11,801 nucleotides of DNA from Candidatus Thorarchaeota archaeon (lineage in GTDB: Archaea > Asgardarchaeota > Thorarchaeia > Thorarchaeales > Thorarchaeaceae), in the NCBI GenBank assembly GCA_046482545.1, contig JAWOEX010000034.1:1-11801 (forward strand), written 5' to 3'. Below are positions 1 through 11,801 of the stretch, piece by piece; position 1 is the first letter of the stretch; each line of letters opens with the position of its first letter. The notes beneath the pieces are model-generated. The model did not search any database, had not been told where the DNA came from, and was given only the letters and a program-made list of their open reading frames with translations. A program made the translations under genes and the position numbers.

Positions 1-1091
1 ACAATTGCGAATTCATCGCATACACCTTCCCAACCACGGTCTCTGGAATATTTGTCCGCATTGGTTGTATAAAGTGTGTATGAATCATCAACAGGGGTCA
101 TCAGGTTATTTACACCTCCATTTAGGAATCGACCCACATCAGGAGGGAAAAAGTAATCGAAGTCATCGATGATTATTGCAGCTTGATAGTAGATACCGTA
201 GTATTCGGGATGATAAAGTCTTCTGAATGTGGGGATATTGAAGCCGTCATCGGACATCCCTTCCCAATAATAATCAGGATTGTTTGATGCTGTAGTCATG
301 TCATCCGACGGAGGTAACAGGTTATTCCAATCACCCGCACCGTATCTCTGCATATTGGTATAACCAGTGTTATCAGTGTAGGAGATGTAATCACTTGACC
401 CCGCAATTTCAATCCCAACATCAGATGAATACGGAGTTATTCCGCCGTCATCATAGTAAGCATTGCCGTATACTTCTGCTTCTGCTTCCTTGAGGCCGAT
501 AGATGTTTGGGGAATCGTAACTGTAAGAATTTCTATATTGTGGTAGTCTGTTAGATGCACCGATTTGCTATCACAAATCTCTTGATCCTGCGTGTTTGGC
601 TCATCATAGCTTGTAAAAGCCAAAGTGAAATACGCAGAATAGTAACCAACCAAGTATATATCATATTGAATGTCAATCGTCTCGGTTCTGCTCCAGACGG
701 AGGGTATGGTCACTACTATATCGACACTACGGTATGATGTCGTAGTCTGGGTGGATTCTAGCTCCGCATGACCTCTTTGCACTCGTTCGGTTATCTCACC
801 ATGGGAGTAATGAATCTCTTTGAACTCGAGTCGTGGCGGAACAGATTGCTCCAAATAGGAAATATCCTCAACATTCGTCAAAACCGAGCATCGATCACCT
901 GTACGGTTGATTACATACGGCATGCTAGTGTTCAAAGAGCTGCTCAACTGCTGTTGCTGATTTCCCCTTGTTTCTAGAGGAGGAATAGGCTCCAAACCAT
1001 AATCAGTATCTCCGACCATTAACAGGGGAAAGAGGATAATTATGGCCATTACAACTGAAATAATCTCATTTTTGTTCAATACGAAACTCAT
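1..1091 (-). CDS. Secreted/surface protein of unknown function, 3'-truncated by the window edge (at least 363 aa)
   Basis: Absent from the ORF track because it has no stop codon in the window. Manual translation from ATG at 1091-1089 stays open to position 1 (MSFVLNKNEIISVVMAIIILFPLLMVGDTDYG...DRGWEGVCDEFAI). It has a hydrophobic N-terminal signal-like segment and a Y/D/T/S-rich body. An alternative TTG start lies four codons downstream. Confidence 0.85.
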   Translation of the reverse strand, partial: MSFVLNKNEIISVVMAIIILFPLLMVGDTDYGLEPIPPLETRGNQQQQLSSSLNTSMPYVINRTGDRCSVLTNVEDISYLEQSVPPRLEFKEIHYSHGEITERVQRGHAELESTQTTTSYRSVDIVVTIPSVWSRTETIDIQYDIYLVGYYSAYFTLAFTSYDEPNTQDQEICDSKSVHLTDYHNIEILTVTIPQTSIGLKEAEAEVYGNAYYDDGGITPYSSDVGIEIAGSSDYISYTDNTGYTNMQRYGAGDWNNLLPPSDDMTTASNNPDYYWEGMSDDGFNIPTFRRLYHPEYYGIYYQAAIIIDDFDYFFPPDVGRFLNGGVNNLMTPVDDSYTLYTTNADKYSRDRGWEGVCDEFAI

Positions 1092-1440
1092 CTCTACCAA
1101 ACTGTGTAGGACACTAGATTTAGATAATATAAGGCCTCCAAGGTCGCGCTAGAAGCCGCCAAGAGCCCCAATCTAAGCCATTTCTGAATCCAAGGAAGAA
1201 ACAACTTGGAAAAAGACCAAATACTGCAAAGTCTAATCTAAACATTCGGACAATAATTCATAATGGATAATGCGACAGGGAAGTACCAGAAAAGGCGAAT
1301 TGGTAGTGAAGACAATAGCCATGTACCGAACATGGTTTTACCGTTCCACAAAGCACAGCTATGAAGGTTTCTAAAGTGAAAATCAAGATAGAGCTCAATC
1401 TATTGTTTATGGGCCCTTCAATACGAAGAACAATTGAGAA

Positions 1441-1544
1441 ATGCTGAGGATGGAGGTACAGTTTCTTGAGGTTCTGCTCAAATCTTGACAACTCTAGGTG
1501 CAGCACGAGTCATACTTTCGGTCCGCTCGCCTCGTAGAATAATA
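1441..1544. repeat. Dispersed structured repeat, copy 1 (core 1441-1509 plus right arm)
   Basis: ATGCTGAGGATGGAGGTACAGTTTCTTGAGGTTCTGCTCAAATCTTGACAACTCTAGGTGCAGCACGAG followed by TCATACTTTCGGTCCGCTCGCCTCG. 1441-1532 matches 7060-7151 at 90/92 positions. Confidence 0.97.
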
Positions 1545-1556
1545 TTGGACTCATTC

Positions 1557-2603
1557 TCATTCGGAGGGTCTAACCTCAGTATCACGATCGGTAAGTCGAG
1601 TAGCGGTAGCTTGAATCCTTTGTCTCCAACACTCTTGAAGTGCCATCTGAGCTTCTACCGGGCGTCCGCTTCTCTTCAGTGCATGGTAAATCATGGTATA
1701 TACGGATGGTTGCCTATACCCTAGCTCGATACTTCGCCGGCTTCGTTTCACAGCTTCGTCCCACTGTTGCTTGAGCATAGCCACCTCTGCCAGGTGAAAC
1801 CAGGTCTTTCCCTCATGTTCAGCCACTGGAAAAGCCATTTTCAGCAGCGTGTCAGCCTCGTCGATCAGTAATGCTTCATCTTCGGGGGTATCTGTTGATT
1901 TCACTTTACGAAGAAGCACGTCAGCGAGGCAGATAATTGCTGTATGCCAATCTGGTCGGACAGCTACCGCTTTCCTCAGATAGTCTTCTGCCTCATCATA
2001 TCTCTTCGCTTCAGCAAGAAACCGTCCATAATCCAACAGGGGCATTATTTCCCCAGGTGCTAGATTTAGTGCCTGAAGAAAAGATTCCTCTGCTTCTTCA
2101 GCTTTCTGTAGGTTCGTAAAACAGATTCCAAGATGACGATGGATTTCCGCATCCCGTATGCCAGAATCGTGAGCAGTTTGCAGAGATTCCAGAGCCTCAT
2201 GGTACTCTTCCTTGTGACACAGAATGACTCCGAGACGATACCATAGATCGGGCATTGTGTCATCTTGCTTGAGAGCTCTCCGAATCAGTATCTCTGCTTC
2301 TTCAAGCTTGTTCATATCTGTCAGCATCATAGCCAGATTATGAAGAGTAGGTACGTGATCAGGGTTTATCTTCAGCGCCCTCAACAACGCCCTAACAGAT
2401 TCTTCTTCCTCATCTGATTGCATATAGCACAGGGCGATTTTGCCCCATGTGTCCTCGCACGGGACTGTTATTTCCATGGCCTCTAGGAAGCAATCTATTG
2501 CCAAACGGAACTCAGAATTGGCCATGTGCTTCTCTCCCTTCTCGCACAGCTCGAGATACCGAATCAAAATCTCACGCGGTAGATCATCTATATCGGTCGT
2601 CAT
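1557..2603 (-). CDS. Tetratricopeptide repeat (TPR) protein
   Basis: 348-aa ORF with repeated ~34-aa helical TPR motifs (TWGKIALCY...ALKINPDH, TLHNLAMML...ALKQDD, LWYRLGVIL, IHRHLGICF...ALNLAPG, LLDYGRFL...AVAVRPDW). Confidence 0.92.
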   Translation of the reverse strand: MTTDIDDLPREILIRYLELCEKGEKHMANSEFRLAIDCFLEAMEITVPCEDTWGKIALCYMQSDEEEESVRALLRALKINPDHVPTLHNLAMMLTDMNKLEEAEILIRRALKQDDTMPDLWYRLGVILCHKEEYHEALESLQTAHDSGIRDAEIHRHLGICFTNLQKAEEAEESFLQALNLAPGEIMPLLDYGRFLAEAKRYDEAEDYLRKAVAVRPDWHTAIICLADVLLRKVKSTDTPEDEALLIDEADTLLKMAFPVAEHEGKTWFHLAEVAMLKQQWDEAVKRSRRSIELGYRQPSVYTMIYHALKRSGRPVEAQMALQECWRQRIQATATRLTDRDTEVRPSE

Positions 2604-2912
2604 TCAGCTCACCACGGCTATTCGTCTGTGATTTTCTTTCCTAGAGCAATAGATAAGGTTCTAGCAAAATGAGGAAGCCTCAAAGATGGCAAACTGTCGC
2701 TTTGTTCCTCGTTGATGATATACAAAGAAATTGAGGCCGATGAAACTGTGTTTCTTTGCAAATCGCAATGGAAAGAATGAGCTATACTGATGAAACATGG
2801 CTACTCTTGGAAGAACTACCCACATACGTCATCTCAACTGTTCCGTCGAATGTTCCATTGTCAAATCATGATGCCGTTCTTGAAGTGGTGTCGGGTAGCT
2901 CCCCAAAACCTT

Positions 2913-3623
2913 CTACTCATCAGCACTTGTAGTAGATTCGGATTTGGATACTGTTTTGTAGCTGATAGGTATGAAGAAAACTGGCATGAGTCCAATATAG
3001 GCAATCGAGCTGACCGTGTTTGCGAGGGGAATCCAGTCAACACCGCCAAGCCCAGGAAACAGAGAGGTACTACCGATTACGGCAACAATGAGGGCTCCAA
3101 GACCACCTAGAAAAGCTAGAATATAACCTGAAACCATTATTCTGTCCGGTTCTTCACCGGTTATCCCCGTCAGTCCTGAAAAGAACAGGGATAGAACAAT
3201 AAGAAATGAGGCTTGGCTCCAGAGAATCCCCACAGTTGCCAACTGTTCAGGTTCAAGCCACAGCGCACCAGAATGCCCAGATTTTAGGAGAAATGGACCA
3301 TAAAGAAGAGCCCACCATTCTGTCATAAGAGTTGCGGCTAAGGCTGTAACTCCCGCAAGTGTCATGGTCAATCGGGTCGATGTTTCCTCGTATAGCGATG
3401 CAGAAGCAAATAGGCCAGCAACCATCAAAGGGAGTGCAGCTACAGAGAGATAACCAATCCAAGCGATAGCCCCAAGTGGCCAATACAAGAATTCAAGGCC
3501 GGGATAATTACTAGTTCTGCCCGACTTTAGCATTACTATCGATATGAAGACTTTGACCAAAGCCAACAAGCAACCTAGCACTCCCACTGCTTTTACTTTG
3601 TTCAATGTGTCACTCAGTACCAA
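2913..3623 (-). CDS. Multi-pass membrane protein of unknown function (paralog A)
   Basis: 236-aa ORF with about six hydrophobic segments. TTG start is preceded by GGAGGT, but the spacing is short, so the exact start is uncertain. Shares motifs with 10938-11663 (TLNKV..GV.G, GY.L...GGL.A.I, YIGL...F..PI). Confidence 0.85.
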   Translation of the reverse strand: MVLSDTLNKVKAVGVLGCLLALVKVFISIVMLKSGRTSNYPGLEFLYWPLGAIAWIGYLSVAALPLMVAGLFASASLYEETSTRLTMTLAGVTALAATLMTEWWALLYGPFLLKSGHSGALWLEPEQLATVGILWSQASFLIVLSLFFSGLTGITGEEPDRIMVSGYILAFLGGLGALIVAVIGSTSLFPGLGGVDWIPLANTVSSIAYIGLMPVFFIPISYKTVSKSESTTSADE

Positions 3624-3709
3624 CTACCTCCTTCAACCATAAGGATAGCATTATTGTTTATTCGGTACATCAATTTCGCCTCATTTGATTTGATTCTGTA
3701 CTGCCCTCT
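3621..3709 (-). promoter_or_regulatory. Conserved 5' leader/promoter region of paralog A, including a GGAGGT ribosome-binding site
   Basis: Aligns with 11661-11744 at 75/84 positions plus one 5-bp ATTTG duplication. Homology ends abruptly after CTGTACTGCCCTCT. Confidence 0.75.
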
Positions 3710-3777
3710 AAGCGTATCTTCCCAGTGTAAAGGAGGAGACCTAACCATTTGACTCCCATTCCTACTATCCTGACATG

Positions 3778-4017
3778 AAAAGGAGCGGCACTATTTGAGA
3801 CTTACTCTCAGAATCGATCCACGAATAGGCATAACTAGGAAAGCAGAACAAGGCCGCCTCCGAAGATTGGCAAGGCGGCATATCAGCTCTTCTTGTTTTG
3901 AAAATGCACTACTAAAATAAAATAGATGCTGAGGATGGAGGTACTGCTTTTCTGAGGTCCACACCAAATCTTGACAACTCTGGGTGCAGCACGAGCTATA
4001 TATTCATTGTAATTCCA
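3778..4017. repeat. Dispersed structured repeat, copy 2 (core 3926-3995, long left arm, short TATAT...TAATTCCA right arm)
   Basis: Core ATGCTGAGGATGGAGGTACTGCTTTTCTGAGGTCCACACCAAATCTTGACAACTCTGGGTGCAGCACGAG. Left arm 3778-3925 aligns with 4611-4754 and in part with about 6984-7059. Confidence 0.93.
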
Positions 4018-4052
4018 ATCATCCAAGAAGGATTTTCATTATTGATTCTGTT

Positions 4053-4565
4053 TCACTGGAGCCAAGTGGGCACATCTTCAGGTGGGGGATATCTTTTGAT
4101 AATGACAAGGCCCACGAGTAAACTCAGGGGAATCGGAATAGTGGGCCAAAACGGAGCACTCGGGGAGGTTAAATAAATGATAAGATAAAACAGGTCATTT
4201 ATCAGAGGGGGGATTAGGACGATGCATCCGGTCGCGAGTGCTTTCTTGACAGATGTTTGCCCCAAATAGAGACGGTATAGCATGTACGCAAATAGAAGCT
4301 GAGGACCGCCTATGATAATGAGGGCTTGGAGTAAAGAGAAGCCAGCAAAGTACAAAGAGAATGAGATACGTGTTGTAGAGTCTGCGTCGTACGCATGGAA
4401 CATCCAACCACCAGCATATATGAATAAGTCGAATGGGCCGCAGTATACCCAACACGGAAGAAGAAGTGCACACAAAGCAACAATGATTCCAGCTTTCGCA
4501 GCAAAATATCTATTCTCTTTCTCCGCTTTCAGTTCCTTATCACTCATTTCCGATCTTACCCTCAC
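4053..4565 (-). CDS. Small multi-pass membrane protein of unknown function
   Basis: 170-aa ORF with a GTG start (or the downstream ATG of MSDKE), 4-5 hydrophobic segments and a Pro-rich C-terminus (PTIPIPLSLLVGLVIIKRYPPP). It is the only gene between repeat copies 2 and 3. Confidence 0.8.
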   Translation of the reverse strand: MRVRSEMSDKELKAEKENRYFAAKAGIIVALCALLLPCWVYCGPFDLFIYAGGWMFHAYDADSTTRISFSLYFAGFSLLQALIIIGGPQLLFAYMLYRLYLGQTSVKKALATGCIVLIPPLINDLFYLIIYLTSPSAPFWPTIPIPLSLLVGLVIIKRYPPPEDVPTWLQ

Positions 4566-4610
4566 TGCACCATCTATTAGATATGTTTCGAAATGATTCG
4601 CGTATAGTGC

Positions 4611-4845
4611 AAAGGAACTCTATTTGAGATTTGCTCTCAGAAGTGAACCATGAAAAAGCAGATAAAAAACAGAATAAAGCTGTCCGCCAAGGATAGTAAA
4701 ACGGAACATCAACTCGTCTTACAAAAGCAATTCTACCCAAAAAAACCAACTGAAATGCTGAGGATGGAGGTACTGTTCCTTGAGGTCTTCACCAAATCTT
4801 GGTAACTCTAGGTACTGCACGAGTATATGATACGCAATAATTCCA
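4611..4845. repeat. Dispersed structured repeat, copy 3 (core 4755-4823, long left arm, short right arm)
   Basis: Core ATGCTGAGGATGGAGGTACTGTTCCTTGAGGTCTTCACCAAATCTTGGTAACTCTAGGTACTGCACGAG. TAATTCCA lies 15 nt after the core, exactly as in copy 2. Confidence 0.93.
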
Positions 4846-4883
4846 TGTTTTAATTCATCTTGATAATTAGTGACATTGATATT

Positions 4884-4895
4884 GGAATTATATGA
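4884..4895 (+). promoter_or_regulatory. Putative archaeal-type BRE/TATA box for the dprA-PRTase pair
   Basis: GGAATTATATGA, with TTATAT at 4888-4893 about 27-32 nt upstream of ATG 4920. That spacing fits a leaderless archaeal transcript. Motif evidence only. Confidence 0.4.
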
Positions 4896-4919
4896 TATAG
4901 AATTGTGTGCTGATGAGAT

Positions 4920-5843
4920 ATGCAAGATGACATCCTCTATTGGCTAGCAAGCACCAAATTACCTGAATTTGCAATCGAAGATGCACTTCTGGTATTGGGA
5001 AAATTTGGGAGTTTGAAGACAGCTTGGAAAGCAGATAAGGAGGTCTTGAAGGGGATTAAGGGAAGCCAAAGACTCTCTAAGGCAATACTGAATCACAAGT
5101 CGCCCAGTATCATTGACGAGTGCAAGGAGATAGTCAACTGGGCGGAGAAAGAGTCGATTCATATAATCCCATATATGTCACAAGATTATCCTCGCCTTCT
5201 TAGAGAGGCTAACAATCCACCTCCAACGCTTTTCGTCAAGGGCGATCCGAAGATAATGCATAATAAGACAATAGCGATGGTAGGAACTCGGGATCCATCA
5301 GAATATGGAAAGTCAGCAAGTCGGAGAATAGCTAGTGAACTTGTCAGATTGGGGTATGTAGTGGTTTCGGGTTTGGCATTTGGTATTGACGAATCTGCTC
5401 ACAAAGGTGTTCTTGATGAAGATGGTCTAACCATAGCGGTACTTGCGAGTAGTGTAGACAATGTCACTCCGAAATCAAATAAAGAGCTTGCTAACAACAT
5501 TCTCCGAGGAGGAGGCTGCCTCGTCTCAGAATATGGCCCAAAGGAGCCTATTAGGCGAGGGAATTTCGTGGAACGTAACAGGATAATAGCCGGCCTCTCA
5601 AATGCCACAATCGTAGTTGAGGGTACAAAGAACAGCGGAACTCGTCATCAAGCTACATATGCAAAGGAAATGGAACGGCCAATATTCGTGGTTGAGCCGG
5701 AGAATCGCGAGATAGAGCAAGCAGAGCTACCACTGATTCTCATTGATGAAGGAGCTATTTCCGTTAGAAGTGGACCAGAAGCCGTGAGAGAGCTTTGGAT
5801 GACAAGATTGGACAAGGGCGAAACGGAGTTGAAAGCTGCTTGA
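4920..5843 (+). CDS. dprA: DNA-processing protein DprA/Smf family
   Basis: Hallmark DprA motifs: YPRLLRE..NPPPTLFVKGD, IAMVGTR..SEYG, VVVSGLAFGIDESAH, GGCLVSEY, FVERNRIIAGLS.ATIVVE...SGT. N-terminal SAM/HhH-like region; no evident C-terminal winged-helix domain. Confidence 0.95.
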   Translation: MQDDILYWLASTKLPEFAIEDALLVLGKFGSLKTAWKADKEVLKGIKGSQRLSKAILNHKSPSIIDECKEIVNWAEKESIHIIPYMSQDYPRLLREANNPPPTLFVKGDPKIMHNKTIAMVGTRDPSEYGKSASRRIASELVRLGYVVVSGLAFGIDESAHKGVLDEDGLTIAVLASSVDNVTPKSNKELANNILRGGGCLVSEYGPKEPIRRGNFVERNRIIAGLSNATIVVEGTKNSGTRHQATYAKEMERPIFVVEPENREIEQAELPLILIDEGAISVRSGPEAVRELWMTRLDKGETELKAA

Positions 5844-5889
5844 TATTATGGCTACTTGTCAATGAACTTCAGGAGGAATTAAAGTAGTA

Positions 5890-6627
5890 ATGGATTATAC
5901 TCTGAAGTATAAAGAGATTAGAATGTCTATTCGTGCGGAGATATCCGATAAGAATGATGGAAGTGTGCTTGTCCTCAGGAATTCGTTTCCAGAAGGGCGC
6001 AGGGAATATGAAATCCTCAGACCGAAGTGCCCAAGATGCTATCATCCAACTGAGAGTTATGGCTCTGGAGATTGTAGAACATGCCGAAGATGGATAGCCT
6101 TACAACGAGCCATAGCTCTGGGAGTGTATATTCCTACTGAATACTGGGATGGAGCACCGCCGAATGATCTTTCTGATGATATCTTTCGTGCTAAGAATGA
6201 GGAGGAGATGGTATACGCAAATCTTCTGGGAGTAGCTCTCAGTCATTATGCCTTAAGACTCCATTCGGTCCTATTAGAATTTGATCGAGTAATTCCTATG
6301 CCGACTGCCAAGAGCTATAATCGAGAGAGAATAATGGCAAGCATTGTTTCACAGATTCTAGATATCAAGTTATTGGATAATGTACTTTACAAGATTCCTG
6401 GCAGACAAATGAAGGGATTGTCCCTTAGTGAAAGACAAGAGAACGCAAGGAAGACGATTCATGCTGAAGGAGGAAAGTCATTGGACGGTGAAACAATTAT
6501 AGTAGTCGACGATGTCCTCACCGCAGGATGTTCTCTTGATCGATGTTCTGTAGAACTCCAGAGAATAGGGGCCGGTAAAGTGGTTGGACTTGTTGCTGGA
6601 AGAACATATCATCCCAGTACCAACTAG
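5890..6627 (+). CDS. ComF/ComFC-like phosphoribosyltransferase-fold protein with zinc ribbon
   Basis: CPRC...CRTC zinc-binding pair, RQMKGLSLSERQEN segment typical of the ComF family, PRPP-binding loop IIVVDDVLTAGCSL and C-terminal GAGKVVGLVAGR. AGGAGG at 5871-5876; starts 46 bp after the dprA stop. Confidence 0.88.
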   Translation: MDYTLKYKEIRMSIRAEISDKNDGSVLVLRNSFPEGRREYEILRPKCPRCYHPTESYGSGDCRTCRRWIALQRAIALGVYIPTEYWDGAPPNDLSDDIFRAKNEEEMVYANLLGVALSHYALRLHSVLLEFDRVIPMPTAKSYNRERIMASIVSQILDIKLLDNVLYKIPGRQMKGLSLSERQENARKTIHAEGGKSLDGETIIVVDDVLTAGCSLDRCSVELQRIGAGKVVGLVAGRTYHPSTN

Positions 6628-6983
6628 TTTGGTTCTTTCTTAGATAGGCATCTATGTATCCTCCATGAAATTATCAAATACAAGTTGTCAGTACATATTT
6701 CTTGAAATATATGTATTTCAGAAGTGTCTTAATCATATATTTGACCGGAACATTATCTCTTGGTTCAGTTCTTACGACCAGTGAATGATGCGCAGAGAAT
6801 TCAGGCCAAAAAGCTGTGTGCATCTAATGTTTCTCCAATTCTTTTTCAATGCATGAGAGGTACTCTGTCAACAATGAATAGATTCTTTCTATAATCATGA
6901 ATAGCGTCATGATAAAGTGAAAAGTCGAGAAGTAGACAATTCCAGAGGGGGCAAAGAGCAATGGATTAGATATGTTGACTAGA

Positions 6984-7163
6984 CCGTTTATTCTGAATGT
7001 TTCTTCAAACGGAAAACCATCTCTTCTGTTCACAAAATTACACTACCAAAACAAAATAGATGCTGAGGATGGAGGTACAGTTTCTTGAGGTTCCGCTCAA
7101 ATCTTGACAACTCTAGGTGCAGCACGAGTCATACTTTCGGTCTGCTCGCCTTGGATACTCGTA
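6984..7163. repeat. Dispersed structured repeat, copy 4 (core 7060-7128 plus both arms)
   Basis: Core and right arm are 90/92 identical to copy 1. The left flank CACTACCAAAACAAAATAG resembles copy 2 (CACTACTAAAATAAAATAG). Confidence 0.97.
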
Positions 7164-7295
7164 AGAGCTCCAACTAATTCGAATCTCGTTGTGTTTACTT
7201 GATGTCTTTTCTCAGCGAACTCAAGCATCTACAAGCTTCAAACCAAGTCCACCGTTATCAGTGTTCCATAGGTCATTCACGGAGACAAGGCTTAG

Positions 7296-7724
7296 TCAAG
7301 TCTGCTCCTGATGAAATGAAGATTCGAGATATGACCGTCCTTCGACTGTTGTTTCTACCCGATATGGGATGTCATGTAATACCATAGCTATGATTGAAGC
7401 AATCAAAAACAAAAGCCCAATTATCAATGGTAGCGAAATCAAATTAACTCGGAAGACATACCAAAGAGAAGATGAAACAAGAAATGAGCTCAAAGCAGCG
7501 CCAAACAGCGAAAAGCGGCGTTCCTGAGCCAATATTCTTAATCCACAGACTTTTCTCTTACAGTCCATGATTTTACGTGAATATAGAGATTCGAATCTCT
7601 CAATCAGATTCAACTTCCGTTCTAATCTCAACTCCGTTCCTTTCAGTAAATTGCATATGGTCTCATTGATTTCATTCTCAAGTGTGTTTTTATCAGGAGA
7701 ATAAAGTAAATCGTCGCTGGCCAT
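7296..7724 (-). CDS. Membrane protein fragment; probable C-terminal part of the split metalloprotease gene
   Basis: 142 aa with two C-terminal hydrophobic helices. Overlaps the upstream ORF by 82 bp. Its frame stays open upstream to the G6 tract at 7736-7741 (...PLLLEMASDD). Confidence 0.6.
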   Translation of the reverse strand: MASDDLLYSPDKNTLENEINETICNLLKGTELRLERKLNLIERFESLYSRKIMDCKRKVCGLRILAQERRFSLFGAALSSFLVSSSLWYVFRVNLISLPLIIGLLFLIASIIAMVLHDIPYRVETTVEGRSYLESSFHQEQT

Positions 7725-9304
7725 CTCCAGTAAGAGGGGGGATCAGATTCATTGATAGTCGATAGTATTCCGACCAGATTTTCGATGTCGTCCTCAAACT
7801 CGTCTGAATTAGTGAGTGATTTCTTAATTGAATTGAGAATCTGCGGGGTTTTCCAAACCATTTCACGCTCTGTAAAATCGACAACAACAAGGACCAAGGT
7901 CAACAGACTGCTAAGACATACGAGGCGTGTATGAATATCAGCGAACGCAACAAGGGAATTGGTAATTTGTGCAACTGCTAAAGAAACTACAAACCCAATT
8001 GCTATGTTTAATGGCAACACCAAAGGTTTAGGATAAAACACGGTCGTCTTATTGTAAATCATTGACAGCGTGCGGTATCTTTTGAAAAGTAGCTTCTTTA
8101 TTTTGGAAATCCAATTTCTGGGAGATGCTATTATCAATGCAAAAAGAGTAACAACACATATCGATATTATTAGTGGAAAATGAAGCTTCCATAGGGGTAT
8201 AGAATCACTAACGTAGTAAAGAATGCTACTAGAAGGTTCAGTTGGTGCCATGGATCGGATGCTAGAATATAGAGATTCATTGCCCGAGCTCATGAGCAAG
8301 ATACCGTGTGGAGATTCACCGTAGCTAAACTTAGGCATGTATGTTCTGAAATAACGTGGACAGGACCTTCTCAGAATGGTTCCTGTTTCCTCATTGATTA
8401 AAATCTCTGTCATATTCGAATCTCGCGTTTCAACGAGACGATATTGATTCGACATGTTGACATAGCTTATAGATTCCAACTCGAGTCTTTCCAACCATTC
8501 TGTGCTGTATATTTCTTCAAACACGTTTTCTAATTGGCCTAACAAGATATTCAGTCTATGTAAATTAATTGTCTCATTGTCAATACCATCGTGGTACGCA
8601 ACAAGAATACTTCTTTGTGATTGGACGACATCAAAATCATAAAGCCCATCCCCTTTAGGTTGCCATTGATTTAGTACTTCCGTGGAATTGAATCTGACAA
8701 GATTAAGAGACTTATTCTCAGACTCTTTGTAGAGAATCAAAGGGTCTTCCCCCTCAAAGCAGTTCGACATCTTATGGTCAACAAGATAAAGAAAAGGGCA
8801 GAAACTATGGTTCCACAGCCCTTTGCTAAGATGGATAAACGTCAAGCCATATGTTTCATTCATGTGGGAGCGGGCACATAAGAAAAATTCATCAGTTGTA
8901 GAGGTTACCTGAAATTCGTGGAGGGCATATCCCACTAGGTCCGTCAGATTCGTCATATGGAAATCTCCGGGTTCTAAATCTAGATGATATGATAGAGCAC
9001 CTGCATAACTCCTCATTGCTCCGTAGAACCGCCCTACCAAGAAAATCGAACCATCATAGTAGCAGAGAGAAATATCATATTCATTAACCACGTAACTGGT
9101 TCTGTTAGTGCTTGCCAAAAAGTACCAATCACGAGCGGAGTTGTTTGAGAAATACAAGTCTGTCTGTGTATCGGATTTATTGTAATAGCTTATAGTAGAA
9201 AAAATCATACTCGTATCTAACCAATCATCCCTTGGGGCGGAGGTCACTAGAATGCTAGTATATGGTGCCCGGTCTGAAGATGTATCCTTTCTGAAATTAT
9301 CCAA
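7643..9304 (-). CDS. Extracellular-type domain plus transmembrane helices; probable middle part of the split metalloprotease gene
   Basis: 553 aa with 12 N-x-S/T sequons before the first TM helix but no N-terminal signal peptide. TTG start overlaps the upstream ORF by 58 bp. Confidence 0.7.
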   Translation of the reverse strand: MDNFRKDTSSDRAPYTSILVTSAPRDDWLDTSMIFSTISYYNKSDTQTDLYFSNNSARDWYFLASTNRTSYVVNEYDISLCYYDGSIFLVGRFYGAMRSYAGALSYHLDLEPGDFHMTNLTDLVGYALHEFQVTSTTDEFFLCARSHMNETYGLTFIHLSKGLWNHSFCPFLYLVDHKMSNCFEGEDPLILYKESENKSLNLVRFNSTEVLNQWQPKGDGLYDFDVVQSQRSILVAYHDGIDNETINLHRLNILLGQLENVFEEIYSTEWLERLELESISYVNMSNQYRLVETRDSNMTEILINEETGTILRRSCPRYFRTYMPKFSYGESPHGILLMSSGNESLYSSIRSMAPTEPSSSILYYVSDSIPLWKLHFPLIISICVVTLFALIIASPRNWISKIKKLLFKRYRTLSMIYNKTTVFYPKPLVLPLNIAIGFVVSLAVAQITNSLVAFADIHTRLVCLSSLLTLVLVVVDFTEREMVWKTPQILNSIKKSLTNSDEFEDDIENLVGILSTINESDPPSYWRWPATIYFILLIKTHLRMKSMRPYAIY

Positions 9305-10446
9305 TCTTCGGTAAGGGTATCACTAATCTCTATAGTGACTCCAGATTTTGTCCATTTATTAACGCGAACTGCGAAGGAGTTATTCTTGTCAAAAAATGTT
9401 TCTCCCTCTCTAAGTGAGGCATCAGATAGAGAATTTGATTGGATTGGTACCTGAAGTCGGACAGCATCACGTCTCAACTTGATTCGTGTTTCATTAACAA
9501 GCATTACTAAGACACCATAGTCAGGGAGAGAAGAATCATAACCAATTTTGGAACGAGCTTCTACCAAATAGTACCTGCCATCGGGCAGGTGATATCTTAT
9601 AGCTCGATAACCCCTTGTCTGACAAGCAATTGGAACTAAATCGATTGAGAGACTGCCATTCGTAAATTCATAAACATCTGAATCTTGAATCAGGCCACTC
9701 TCAAGCTTCGCGAACGAGGACATATGACTTGGTTTCGACCCATCCGGATTTCCGTTATGGTTTCCACTGCTCATCAGTCCCCAGTAAGATATGCCTGTAG
9801 AAGGAGGGTTCTTCGAATGATAATCATACAAATCTGAAGCGCCCAAATCATGACCTAATTCATGTGCTACAGATCCAACAAGATCGTATTCAGAAACAAC
9901 AGAAACCCCTGTGAATGTTCTTCCATCGAGTGTAGTATACCAACCCTCTTTATGACATGTTGAAATACGAGTCTTATTATCGGAAATCTCAGGTGACTGT
10001 CTACTGTATCCGGAATGTACAACCACAAGACGGTCATAGGACCAGAAATCTACACGAAATTCGTTCGCCTTTATGGCTTCGACAATAAGCGAGTCTTTAG
10101 CTCCTCCATGTTCAACATCGCCGTATGTATTAACAGTTGCATAATCTGTCATTTCTTGCGGTATTCGGACCCAACCTGCAACAGTACTCGAAAATATCAA
10201 TTTGTGATAGGAGCATTCCCAATAATAGTCATCAACCTTGTCCATAACATCTTGGAGGTCTCTTATTGATGTCGATGGCGGAGTGTCTTCTGTAAAGACG
10301 GGCAACACGATAATTTGTTGTACCCCAGTAGATTCACTAGGACGTAAGGAAAGGGTGAAACCTGCTGCAAGGATTCCACCGCAAAACGAAAACTGTAGAA
10401 CAAGAAGCACGATATATGCCAGATTCTTTGACCTGTATGAAACCAT
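9247..10446 (-). CDS. M6-family (immune inhibitor A-like) zinc metalloprotease domain protein
   Basis: N-terminal signal/anchor. Motifs VDDYYWECSY, VVVHSG, zinc site VAHELGHDLGASDLY, Met-turn WGLMSSG, PSHMSSFAK and YYLVEARSKIGYDSSLPDYGVLV match the M6 protease domain pattern. Confidence 0.88.
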   Translation of the reverse strand: MVSYRSKNLAYIVLLVLQFSFCGGILAAGFTLSLRPSESTGVQQIIVLPVFTEDTPPSTSIRDLQDVMDKVDDYYWECSYHKLIFSSTVAGWVRIPQEMTDYATVNTYGDVEHGGAKDSLIVEAIKANEFRVDFWSYDRLVVVHSGYSRQSPEISDNKTRISTCHKEGWYTTLDGRTFTGVSVVSEYDLVGSVAHELGHDLGASDLYDYHSKNPPSTGISYWGLMSSGNHNGNPDGSKPSHMSSFAKLESGLIQDSDVYEFTNGSLSIDLVPIACQTRGYRAIRYHLPDGRYYLVEARSKIGYDSSLPDYGVLVMLVNETRIKLRRDAVRLQVPIQSNSLSDASLREGETFFDKNNSFAVRVNKWTKSGVTIEISDTLTEDWIISERIHLQTGHHILAF

Positions 10447-10673
10447 ACTTTATAGCCTCAATTACACAACCTAATGGACCTATACAATATATTTTGAAAG
10501 AGACATAAATAATCCACCTCTTTACTTTTTGGAACGTCTAAAGATGAAAGGTAAATACTGCAGAGACCAATTCGATACATTCCCCAGAAGAAGCATGCGA
10601 CATATTTTTGAGATTATAGGATGTCATCTGAGGCTCCGAGGAACGAAAAGCTAACTCATACTTCAATATTCAA

Positions 10674-10797
10674 GCTAACAAAATAAAATAGATGCTGAGG
10701 ATGGAGATACGTGTTTCTTGAGGTTCTGACCCAAGTCTTGGGAACTCTAGGTGCAGCACGAGTCATATTTTCGGTCTGCTCGCCTCGGACAGTAATA
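10674..10797. repeat. Dispersed structured repeat, copy 5 (core 10692-10762 plus arms)
   Basis: AAAATAAAATAG, then ATGCTGAGGATGGAGATACGTGTTTCTTGAGGTTCTGACCCAAGTCTTGGGAACTCTAGGTGCAGCACGAG, then TCATATTTTCGGTCTGCTCGCCTCGG. Confidence 0.95.
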
Positions 10798-10937: not shown

Positions 10938-11663
10938 CTACTCCTCTGAATCTTCTCCTTGTTCCTGGATATCGGGGTGTTTCTTGGATTGGGTAATCGG
11001 TCTGTAGAATGCCGCTCCAAGCCCGATATACCCGCTGACAGCTATGATGTACGATATCAAAACAAATACGCCATCGCCGTACGTTGAAACAAACAACCCA
11101 CCGGTCACAAGCCCGTAGATGATAGCAACAAGTCCACCAATCAGGCTTAGAACGTAGCCAGCATTGGCGACCTTATCCGACCCTCTCTCGAAGATACCAG
11201 CTAAGCCTGCTAGTACCACGGACAGAAAGGCAGCTGTGAATCCCTGCACCATCAGGGTTTCCAAGTTCAGGAGCTGTGGTGGGGTTATTGGAATCTCATA
11301 CTCAACGGTAATCCATACATCTGTATACGGAATAAGCCATTGTACCATCAGTACGACACTTATTAGAGAAGCTATAGCACCTAGAGCACTGAATGTTTTG
11401 GAAAGCTTGTTTGAATATTCAATAATTGAGACAAAAAGGGCCAGAGCAACAAGGATTCCGACCATCAAATGGAGACACCCAGCTGAACCTATATCCCTTA
11501 TGTCATAAGGTAAGGTGCCCCACTGTTCATAGGTACTTGGCCATATAAGCTCGACAGAGTATGTCGTTCCATCGTAAATATTCAAGGCATTTACTGCACT
11601 TAGTATAGACCCAACAACGCCTGCTTTTCTTACCTTGTTCAATGTTTCATAATCCACTGCCAA
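10938..11663 (-). CDS. Multi-pass membrane protein of unknown function (paralog B)
   Basis: 241 aa with about six hydrophobic segments, homologous to 2913-3623. Starts at TTG (or a GTG two codons later) after GGAGGT. Confidence 0.85.
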   Translation of the reverse strand: MAVDYETLNKVRKAGVVGSILSAVNALNIYDGTTYSVELIWPSTYEQWGTLPYDIRDIGSAGCLHLMVGILVALALFVSIIEYSNKLSKTFSALGAIASLISVVLMVQWLIPYTDVWITVEYEIPITPPQLLNLETLMVQGFTAAFLSVVLAGLAGIFERGSDKVANAGYVLSLIGGLVAIIYGLVTGGLFVSTYGDGVFVLISYIIAVSGYIGLGAAFYRPITQSKKHPDIQEQGEDSEE

Positions 11664-11744
11664 CTACCTCCTAGAACCATACGGATAGCATTATTGTTTG
11701 TACTGTACATCAATTTCACCAGATTTGATTCTGTACTGCCCTCT
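11661..11744 (-). promoter_or_regulatory. Conserved 5' leader/promoter region of paralog B
   Basis: 75/84 identical to 3621-3709. Contains an imperfect inverted repeat (GTAC-AGA-ATCAA...TTGAT-GTAC on the minus strand) and GGAGGT. Confidence 0.75.
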
Positions 11745-11801
11745 GTGTGATTGGCATCAGATGTCAGTCTCCACTCAGATGAATACAACTGGAGAACACA
11801 A

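Follow-up and report, generated by a model that had tools for sequence, protein, structure and literature searches.

Genomic islands of the additive type, described, e.g. for Alteromonas (PMC4898812), at the 3′ ends of tRNA and tmRNA genes, arise by the stacking of cassettes behind a gene for a stable RNA, whereby a displaced piece of the gene marks each addition and an intact gene is kept; how many cassettes there are and how they are ordered varies between relatives, and cassettes cross species borders. Sedentary chromosomal integrons and clusters of attC sites lacking an integron integrase (CALINs; PMC9668308) form long, co-oriented arrays of cassettes with one to a few genes, carry toxin-antitoxin, defence and unknown cargo, and seem to grow in a polar fashion, their distal end being decayed. 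Archaeal pre-23S rRNA forms a stem with a bulge-helix-bulge (BHB) motif from which, as reported for Asgard archaea too, circular 23S rRNA is generated by EndA cleavage and RtcB ligation (PMC12918454). These features are shared by the locus described here, an 11,801-nt window that represents the entire contig JAWOEX010000034.1 (C13) in the bin of a Candidatus Thorarchaeota archaeon (G000; 3.05 Mb, 98.9% complete) and contains five repeats composed of the 3′ end of the 23S rRNA gene and its processing arm. In the following, C denotes contigs of G000, G001 and up related genomes, L loci, and X3 and X4 two metatranscriptome runs. The additive island at tRNA ends is the nearest known kind, and the array found here is a version of it built on rRNA tails. 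It differs in its target, which is the 3′ end of the 23S and 16S rRNA genes with processing arm and tail instead of a tRNA or tmRNA gene, in the ca. 32 marked junctions within one genome, in ragged starts without a constant att core, and in that no integrase was found inside the array, in its vicinity or elsewhere in the genome. A literature search, out of whose reach most subscription journals lay, yielded no published description of rRNA-tail cassette arrays.

We consider it rather likely that the window represents one section of a large genomic island of the additive type, which has grown behind the single 23S rRNA gene and whose cassettes have been moved by host homologous recombination. 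The origin of the repeat is evident from a copy on contig C2 that overlaps the end of the sole 23S rRNA gene of G000 (Rfam RF02540, 2416 bits, C2 80561-83864); this native copy abuts the 23S end as called by Rfam. A weak match on the opposite strand just upstream of the gene corresponds to the 5′ arm of the processing stem. Paired with each other, the native 5′ and 3′ arms give an extended duplex that includes a canonical BHB motif consisting of a 4-bp helix (AGGT/ACCT) and two 3-nt bulges (AAT and AGA). Each repeat is thus a 5′-truncated 23S 3′ end followed by the 3′ processing arm, i.e. one BHB half, and usually by a T-rich tail. The native locus is exactly a pre-23S BHB stem as known from archaea, with complementary arms around the 23S gene, cutting after the second bulge base and ligation to a circle; here, in contrast, the 3′ half also occurs in ca. 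32 extra copies devoid of a 5′ partner. The 23S gene itself (L001:12562-15865) is 3304 nt long compared to 2987 positions of the model and therefore contains ca. 300 nt of expansion segments or inserts.

Processing of the stem is documented by two salt-lake metatranscriptomes from two studies (X3 and X4). Contigs aligned to copy 5 of the window run into the 23S sequence in one direction and into the 5′ arm in the other, and the RNA junction at position 10747 joins the AG of the 3′ arm to the T of the 5′ arm, i.e. after the second base of each bulge. This is the circular-23S junction expected from EndA cleavage and RtcB ligation, and it holds for the native locus of related strains, the runs stemming from a different sample; their contigs carry no strand or read-through information.

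Within the window, the five direct repeats (family D3) start at 1441, 3926, 4755, 7060 and 10692 in the same orientation, with spacings of 2485, 829, 2305 and 3632 bp (Table 1). Number, position, spacing and orientation agree with a preliminary description of this DNA, whereas the core of 69-71 bp given there has to be replaced by a repeat unit of 94-155 bp, which has a variable start inside or just past the 23S gene and usually a T-rich tail. The copies match each other with BLAST E-values of 1e-15 to 1e-40, far beyond chance, and their natural reading direction is the minus strand. All five are intergenic and lie, as previously noted, between unrelated gene blocks, in which Pfam matched the TPR, DprA and M6 domains and, weakly, that of the phosphoribosyltransferase (PRTase) next to DprA. 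Also corroborated was the position of four copies 3′ of a minus-strand stop codon, at measured distances of 22, 47, 132 and 140 bp, while copy 3 is located 91 bp ahead of the dprA start.

Table 1. Features of the window (contig C13), with identities and duplex energies of the repeat copies relative to the native 23S arms
Feature	Position	Strand	Description	Further data
Cassette A, first part	1-1440	-	leader and gene for a secreted/membrane protein (1100->3), running on into C17; no Pfam match	93% to G001 C84, in a different order there
Orphan copy 1	1441-1534	-	last ~14 nt of 23S and 3′ BHB arm; shared T-rich tail absent, cassette-A leader next	86% to native C2:83850-83944; BHB half ACCT-AGA-GTT, positions 1499-1490; duplex energy with 5′ arm -74.4 kcal/mol (native -74.1)
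TPR protein, 348 aa	1557-2603	-	Pfam TPR_2, E 7e-32	
Membrane protein, 236 aa	2913-3623	-	paralogue of 10938-11663 and of a C31 gene; membrane nature judged from hydrophobic sequence	
Longer trailer and leader	3587-3908	-	common to several cassettes that start with a paralogous membrane-protein gene	
Orphan copy 2	3909-4005	-	begins at 23S end; 3′ arm and T-rich tail; BHB helix with one change (ACCC)	89% to native over 97 nt; duplex with 5′ arm -75.7 kcal/mol
Small membrane protein, 170 aa	4053-4565	-	homologues in C32, G001 and G002 arrays	
Orphan copy 3	4701-4828	-	begins ~5 nt past 23S end; 3′ arm and tail	76% to native over 130 nt; intact BHB half
DprA/SLOG protein, ShosA-like	4920-5843	+	PF02481, E 2e-65; PADLOC ShosA, E 9e-73	
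Phosphoribosyltransferase, ShosT-like	5890-6627	+	PF00156 weak, below cut-off; PADLOC ShosT, E 4e-10	
Orphan copy 4	7009-7163	-	last ~24 nt of 23S, 3′ arm and tail	80% to native over 156 nt; duplex with 5′ arm -75.5 kcal/mol
Split peptidase M6 gene	7296-10446	-	frames 9247-10446 (399 aa), 7643-9304 (553 aa) and probably 7296-7724 (142 aa); PF05547	
Orphan copy 5	10681-10797	-	last ~24 nt of 23S, 3′ arm and tail	85% to native over 117 nt; RNA-contig loose ends at 10747 and 10791 (X3, X4)
Membrane protein, 241 aa	10938-11663	-	first gene of the cassette ending at copy 5	

The gene-site-gene layout, the co-orientation of the sites and the variable order of the blocks are also characteristic of integrons and CALINs, which have been reported for Asgard archaea (PMC9668308), and an array with atypical attC sites has to be considered. 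However, no RYYYAAC...GTTRRRY pair is present at any of the five copies on either strand, in line with the earlier judgement that the repeat is not a canonical attC site, and the internal GTT...AAC triplets noted at that time are part of the BHB half ACCT-AGA-GTT and not a scrambled attC. Neither strand forms a hairpin such as that of single-stranded attC DNA, the eight folds calculated being no better than those of shuffled sequences (z -0.12 to +1.15). The rRNA-derived site also lacks a fixed crossover, the genes are arranged in both orientations with upstream regions of their own, and neither IntI, which CALINs lack too, nor any other tyrosine recombinase was found in the genome. An integron origin is accordingly very improbable. 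Hardly any probability remains for a non-autonomous mobile element, similar to miniature inverted-repeat transposable elements or repetitive extragenic palindromes, or for a repeated small RNA gene, both of which had been named as alternatives. The short, multi-copy, intergenic repeats, one ectopic copy on C31 and a dispersed repeat of ca. 570 bp in the genome would suit such an explanation; against it, the copies are derived from rRNA, clustered, co-oriented and ragged at their starts, and they possess neither inverted ends nor a hairpin. Rfam covariance models produced no match at any copy in the window up to an E-value of 1, and the scan of the entire window returned only chance miRNA matches. 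A tRNA/tmRNA scan of eight array and flank loci was negative; a tRNA-Sec gene is located at C34 60819-60909 (ARAGORN). The dispersed ca. 570-bp repeat occurs genome-wide in either orientation with up to ca. 65 matches per copy (e.g. L006:4620-5201), is also inserted in the G001 array and bears no relation to the rRNA tails.

A search of the genome detected ca. 32 further copies, which are confined to C13, C17, C18, C19, C45, the last 23 kb of C32, one site on C31 and one at the end of C2. The orphan copies are co-oriented over ca. 76 kb, and the single array anticipated in the preliminary description was thus found on a few contigs, with one ectopic copy. Overlaps between contigs define the order away from the 23S gene as (C19 or C18)-C13-C17-C32, with C45 as an alternative branch into C32; the overlap between C13 and C17 amounts to 191 nt. 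At the far end on C32 the array adjoins genes of housekeeping type, as judged from their translations. The array contigs add up to 75.8 kb with a GC content of 44.3% compared to 45.4% for the genome, and for only 14 of 76 open reading frames within the array or next to it does the rest of the genome contain a homologue. The copies decay with distance along C13-C17-C32 (Spearman rho -0.54, p 0.03). In the C31 region L004:7441-16956, the ectopic copy is devoid of the BHB half and has a membrane-gene cassette; a RadA paralogue and a probable TBP paralogue are encoded a few kb away.

Given a short-read bin in which the array is fragmented and branches at the repeats, one might suspect an assembly artefact that glued the 23S ends of several strains to unrelated contigs, the more so as the start of C2 looks chimeric. 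This suspicion has next to no weight, since the cassettes are recovered from two runs in virtually identical form, the copies differ by 2-25% and each has unique flanks, copies 3 and 4 together with the intervening block recur in another public assembly, junctions are common to three species, and a 16S array is present in a single-contig genome. Joints in run contigs that go back on themselves are situated inside repeats; they are explained by other copies and were not taken as circles. The read depth of ca. 23 for cassette A, compared to 10-15 for other blocks, and the contig branches fit either two strains or duplicated cassettes. Positions 1-330 of C2 consist of a GC-rich, bacterial-looking coding sequence fused to a 16S fragment and are probably a chimeric contig start, the true 5′ part of the 16S gene being found at the end of C33. 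A 16-mer scan of genome contigs gave chance bacterial matches.

In G001, G003, G005, G047, G063, G075 and G080, a single contig carries both the 23S gene and, behind it, copies of the repeat; within the family, at least seven genera possess orphan 23S tails, whose sequences are genus-specific. The genome carries a second array, which is composed of 16S trailers (C2 1495-32912, L019 onward; six or seven copies with ragged starts) and separates PIN toxin-antitoxin, ABC and metabolic genes over 31 kb; one ectopic 16S copy lies at C9 196063-196235. Arrays of 16S tails are common in the family. The 16S and 23S genes are unlinked in G000. Together with the tRNA-Sec gene and with a housekeeping protein whose 90% cluster includes one sequence labelled Candidatus Thorarchaeota and one labelled Lokiarchaeota, this points to an organism of the Thorarchaeota. 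Multiplication is almost wholly restricted to the 3′ side: only one 23S 5′ end is present in G000-G002, as is the case for nearly all of the 60 family genomes with a match, in a search that may miss diverged leaders of other genera, and the 16S 5′ flank is single in G000. A second piece of the 23S 5′ end was seen in G049 on another contig. Outside the family, other families were tested with their own 23S ends because that of G000 is too insensitive there. Dense 23S arrays were found in two genomes of the Asgard family f22, and the genomes tested from nine further Asgard families showed no array, or one short match, within 20 kb.

The copies follow several rules which constrain the mode of their spread. 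Among 67 copies from three species, the repeat starts scatter from -60 to +68 around the 23S end, with one at -192. The start of a repeat is inherited together with the preceding cassette and the tail together with the following one, and the variable core positions in between track neither, so that the core appears as a mosaic; in the tail columns, identity between copies with the same downstream cassette is mostly 0.8-1.0 against a background of 0.4-0.7. Within G000, three different junctions are found ahead of cassette A, and it stands in the order A-B with a 5-kb ABC cassette (B) in G000 and in the order B-x-A in G001; B is also found in G002. The expectation that gene content and order between copies would vary among relatives is thereby borne out. 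Only one of ca. 40 co-oriented upstream genes runs into the repeat, and the junction genes are otherwise whole. Nearly all copies (48 of 50) pair with the 5′ arm of their own genome better than controls with an equal number of random changes, and in 40 of the 50 the BHB half is exactly preserved. The retained pairing ability would equally result from gene conversion by the native arm. A trailer/leader of 250-300 bp, 80-90% alike, is found at 4620-4700, at 11582-11801 and on C18, C19 and C31 in addition to the segment listed in Table 1 (repeat families D4, D6 and D12); it may have adjoined the 23S gene ancestrally and have been re-acquired several times.

To explain these patterns, we propose that the cassettes move by ordinary homologous recombination of the host, presumably catalysed by RadA, of which several homologues are encoded in G000, and without a site-specific enzyme. 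DNA from a relative with the order 23S-arm-cassette-repeat would recombine by one crossover in the 3.3-kb 23S gene, serving as long anchor, and by one in the 100-150-bp repeat, serving as short arm. Such a double crossover would add the cassette at the first position, shift the older ones outward and always leave a working 23S end, and crossovers between internal repeats would delete and reorder blocks. As an arm would have to serve as the native arm once its cassette is first, orphan arms would be kept competent for pairing. Homologous recombination would thus explain how starts and tails are inherited, why the arms are conserved and copies decay outward, and why a twin array exists behind the 16S gene. 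Most speculative are the first and the last elements of the proposal, namely that a new gene might initially be captured by an illegitimate join near the end of homology and then be trimmed by deletion, and that arrays might be limited to the 3′ side since their 5′ counterpart would entail a second copy of a strong rRNA promoter. A parallel is offered by homology-facilitated illegitimate recombination, as well as by rRNA-flanked hypervariable regions, for instance HVR2 of SAR11, in that a conserved gene anchors the uptake of foreign flanking DNA. In those cases, however, the flank is replaced or deleted, whereas the array adds a flank and keeps the old end as a repeat.

Several points weigh against this proposal. 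The mechanism is derived from sequence patterns, no capture or exchange event having been observed, and the inheritance test is based on 18 and 25 pairs, which are small sets and not independent. The linkage of the C13 array to the 23S contig C2 is inferred, the connection being unassembled in G000. Repeats of ca. 100 bp with 80-90% identity are poor substrates for recombination. Random illegitimate joins should cut most genes, and as only one of ca. 40 is cut, strong later purging has to be assumed. Recombination as such does not favour the 3′ side, and the model leaves this polarity, the first capture of whole genes and the patchy distribution unexplained; arrays were seen in two Asgard families and not within 20 kb in the genomes tested from nine others, which suggests a lineage-specific factor. 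The route of DNA entry is likewise left unexplained, ComEC and Ku not having been found in five genomes.

Accretion of site-specific integrative elements represents a second, unlikely explanation. Integrases of plasmids or viruses, lost or acting in trans, would target the 3′ region of the 23S gene, and others that of the 16S gene, and later deletion would remove the integrase and erode the rRNA piece to varying extents. Such a process would produce the layout of additive islands at tRNA ends (PMC4898812), the deletions would explain the tight gene-repeat junctions, and a few copies are indeed long (ca. 200 nt in G001 and G021, 112 nt in G047 and at least 349 nt in G225). Moreover, a tyrosine recombinase is encoded somewhere in 28 of 81 family genomes. 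On the other hand, the long copies have no common start, PF00589 gave no match in ten array-bearing genomes (G000, G001, G002, G003, G021, G045, G047, G063, G069 and G080) nor on any array contig, and no integrase occurs among the matches listed for 60 scanned G000 cargo proteins. The 16S tail is unrelated to the 23S tail, and therefore one site-specific enzyme would not serve both, so that two enzyme lines would be needed. Orphan copies with 200-350 nt or more of 23S sequence were recorded at L216 (G225, ca. 7.6 kb behind the 23S end), L066:16824-17099 and L054:10861-11226; they may be the least eroded junctions and hence the likeliest place for a capture signature. A donor context for capture junctions was looked for and none was found.

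The preliminary description had suggested a recombination site of its own and a dedicated enzyme encoded outside the window, which is at variance with a repeat that is the 23S end and processing arm, has ragged starts and a mosaic core. The search for candidate enzymes was negative as well: G000 contains no serine recombinase of PF07508, no IS110 transposase (PF01548), no reverse transcriptase (PF00078) and no Cas1 (PF01867), resolvases of PF00239 and LAGLIDADG proteins not having been searched for. Its single Y1 transposase gene, on C24, is unlinked to the array, and none was found in four array-bearing relatives. A dedicated capture system might nevertheless be tied to rRNA transcription or processing, with an unrecognised enzyme or repair route acting at the rRNA 3′ end or the BHB arm and joining genes, possibly via an RNA-DNA hybrid. 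Strict 3′ polarity, the conservation of the BHB half, whole genes at the junctions and the patchy distribution would be readily understood, and most genomes of the family possess a conserved cluster of co-oriented genes encoding a RadA paralogue, XPD-like and Hel308-like helicases, a FEN1-like nuclease and membrane proteins (C9 213-232 kb in G000, L236:500-19500). Yet the copies span both sides of the BHB cut and are therefore not copies of processed RNA, which together with the lack of a reverse transcriptase and the cassettes oriented both ways with their upstream regions makes such a system improbable, even more so than integrative accretion. The 758-aa membrane protein of the C9 cluster is present in 38 of 48 family genomes; it was not found with this query in f22 (0 of 12), and distant matches occur in family f19, whose one tested genome shows no 23S array. 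As the cluster thus tracks the arrays uncleanly, it is only a candidate for DNA-exchange machinery. In a more general form, the array may be a distinct integrase-free platform with rRNA 3′ ends as landing pads, where complete genes are captured, and exchanged between species, by a dedicated, unrecognised host pathway with a link to the termination or processing of rRNA. We regard this as doubtful, albeit somewhat less so than integrative accretion.

The cargo of the window comprises further points of note. The DprA and PRTase genes form a candidate defence pair; they resemble ShosTA (PADLOC) in the expected adjacency of ShosA- and ShosT-type genes at 4920-6627, while the ShosT match is partial and the pair, known from profile matches, is cargo only. 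The M6 protease gene is split, as proposed earlier: its first two frames correspond to a single 797-codon frame in G051, and run contigs cross the frame junctions without a gap, so that the split is present in the sample. The third frame (7296-7724) is probably part of the gene, as judged from overlap only. Across the whole array, toxin-antitoxin genes of the PIN and HepT/nucleotidyltransferase types are represented in the cargo, as are genes for ABC transporters, a heavy-metal ATPase, a prolyl oligopeptidase and TPR proteins; candidate defence genes were called by PADLOC, one gene encodes a DDE transposase, and many are unknowns. The DDE transposase-like gene (L006:7638-8552) is 98% identical at the DNA level to a gene of the G001 array and was treated as a passenger. 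RNA cover of the cargo genes in X3 and X4 is patchy and was not taken as evidence for expression or habitat.

With ca. 76 kb behind the 23S gene and 31 kb behind the 16S gene in a 3-Mb genome, rRNA tails would constitute a major route by which accessory genes flow among Asgard archaea, including genes for toxin-antitoxin systems, defence-like functions, transport and membrane proteins. Beside rRNA genes, short-read assemblies are broken by orphan rRNA tails, and such islands are therefore under-counted in bins. The locus indicates that an integron-like array can be built from the tail of an essential gene without a recognisable recombinase. Should the platform with a dedicated pathway prove true, Asgard archaea would own an equivalent of the integron. 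Testable handles on how foreign DNA is taken up and joined in these uncultured cells are provided by the strict polarity towards the 3′ side, by the conservation of the BHB half and by the patchiness of the distribution.

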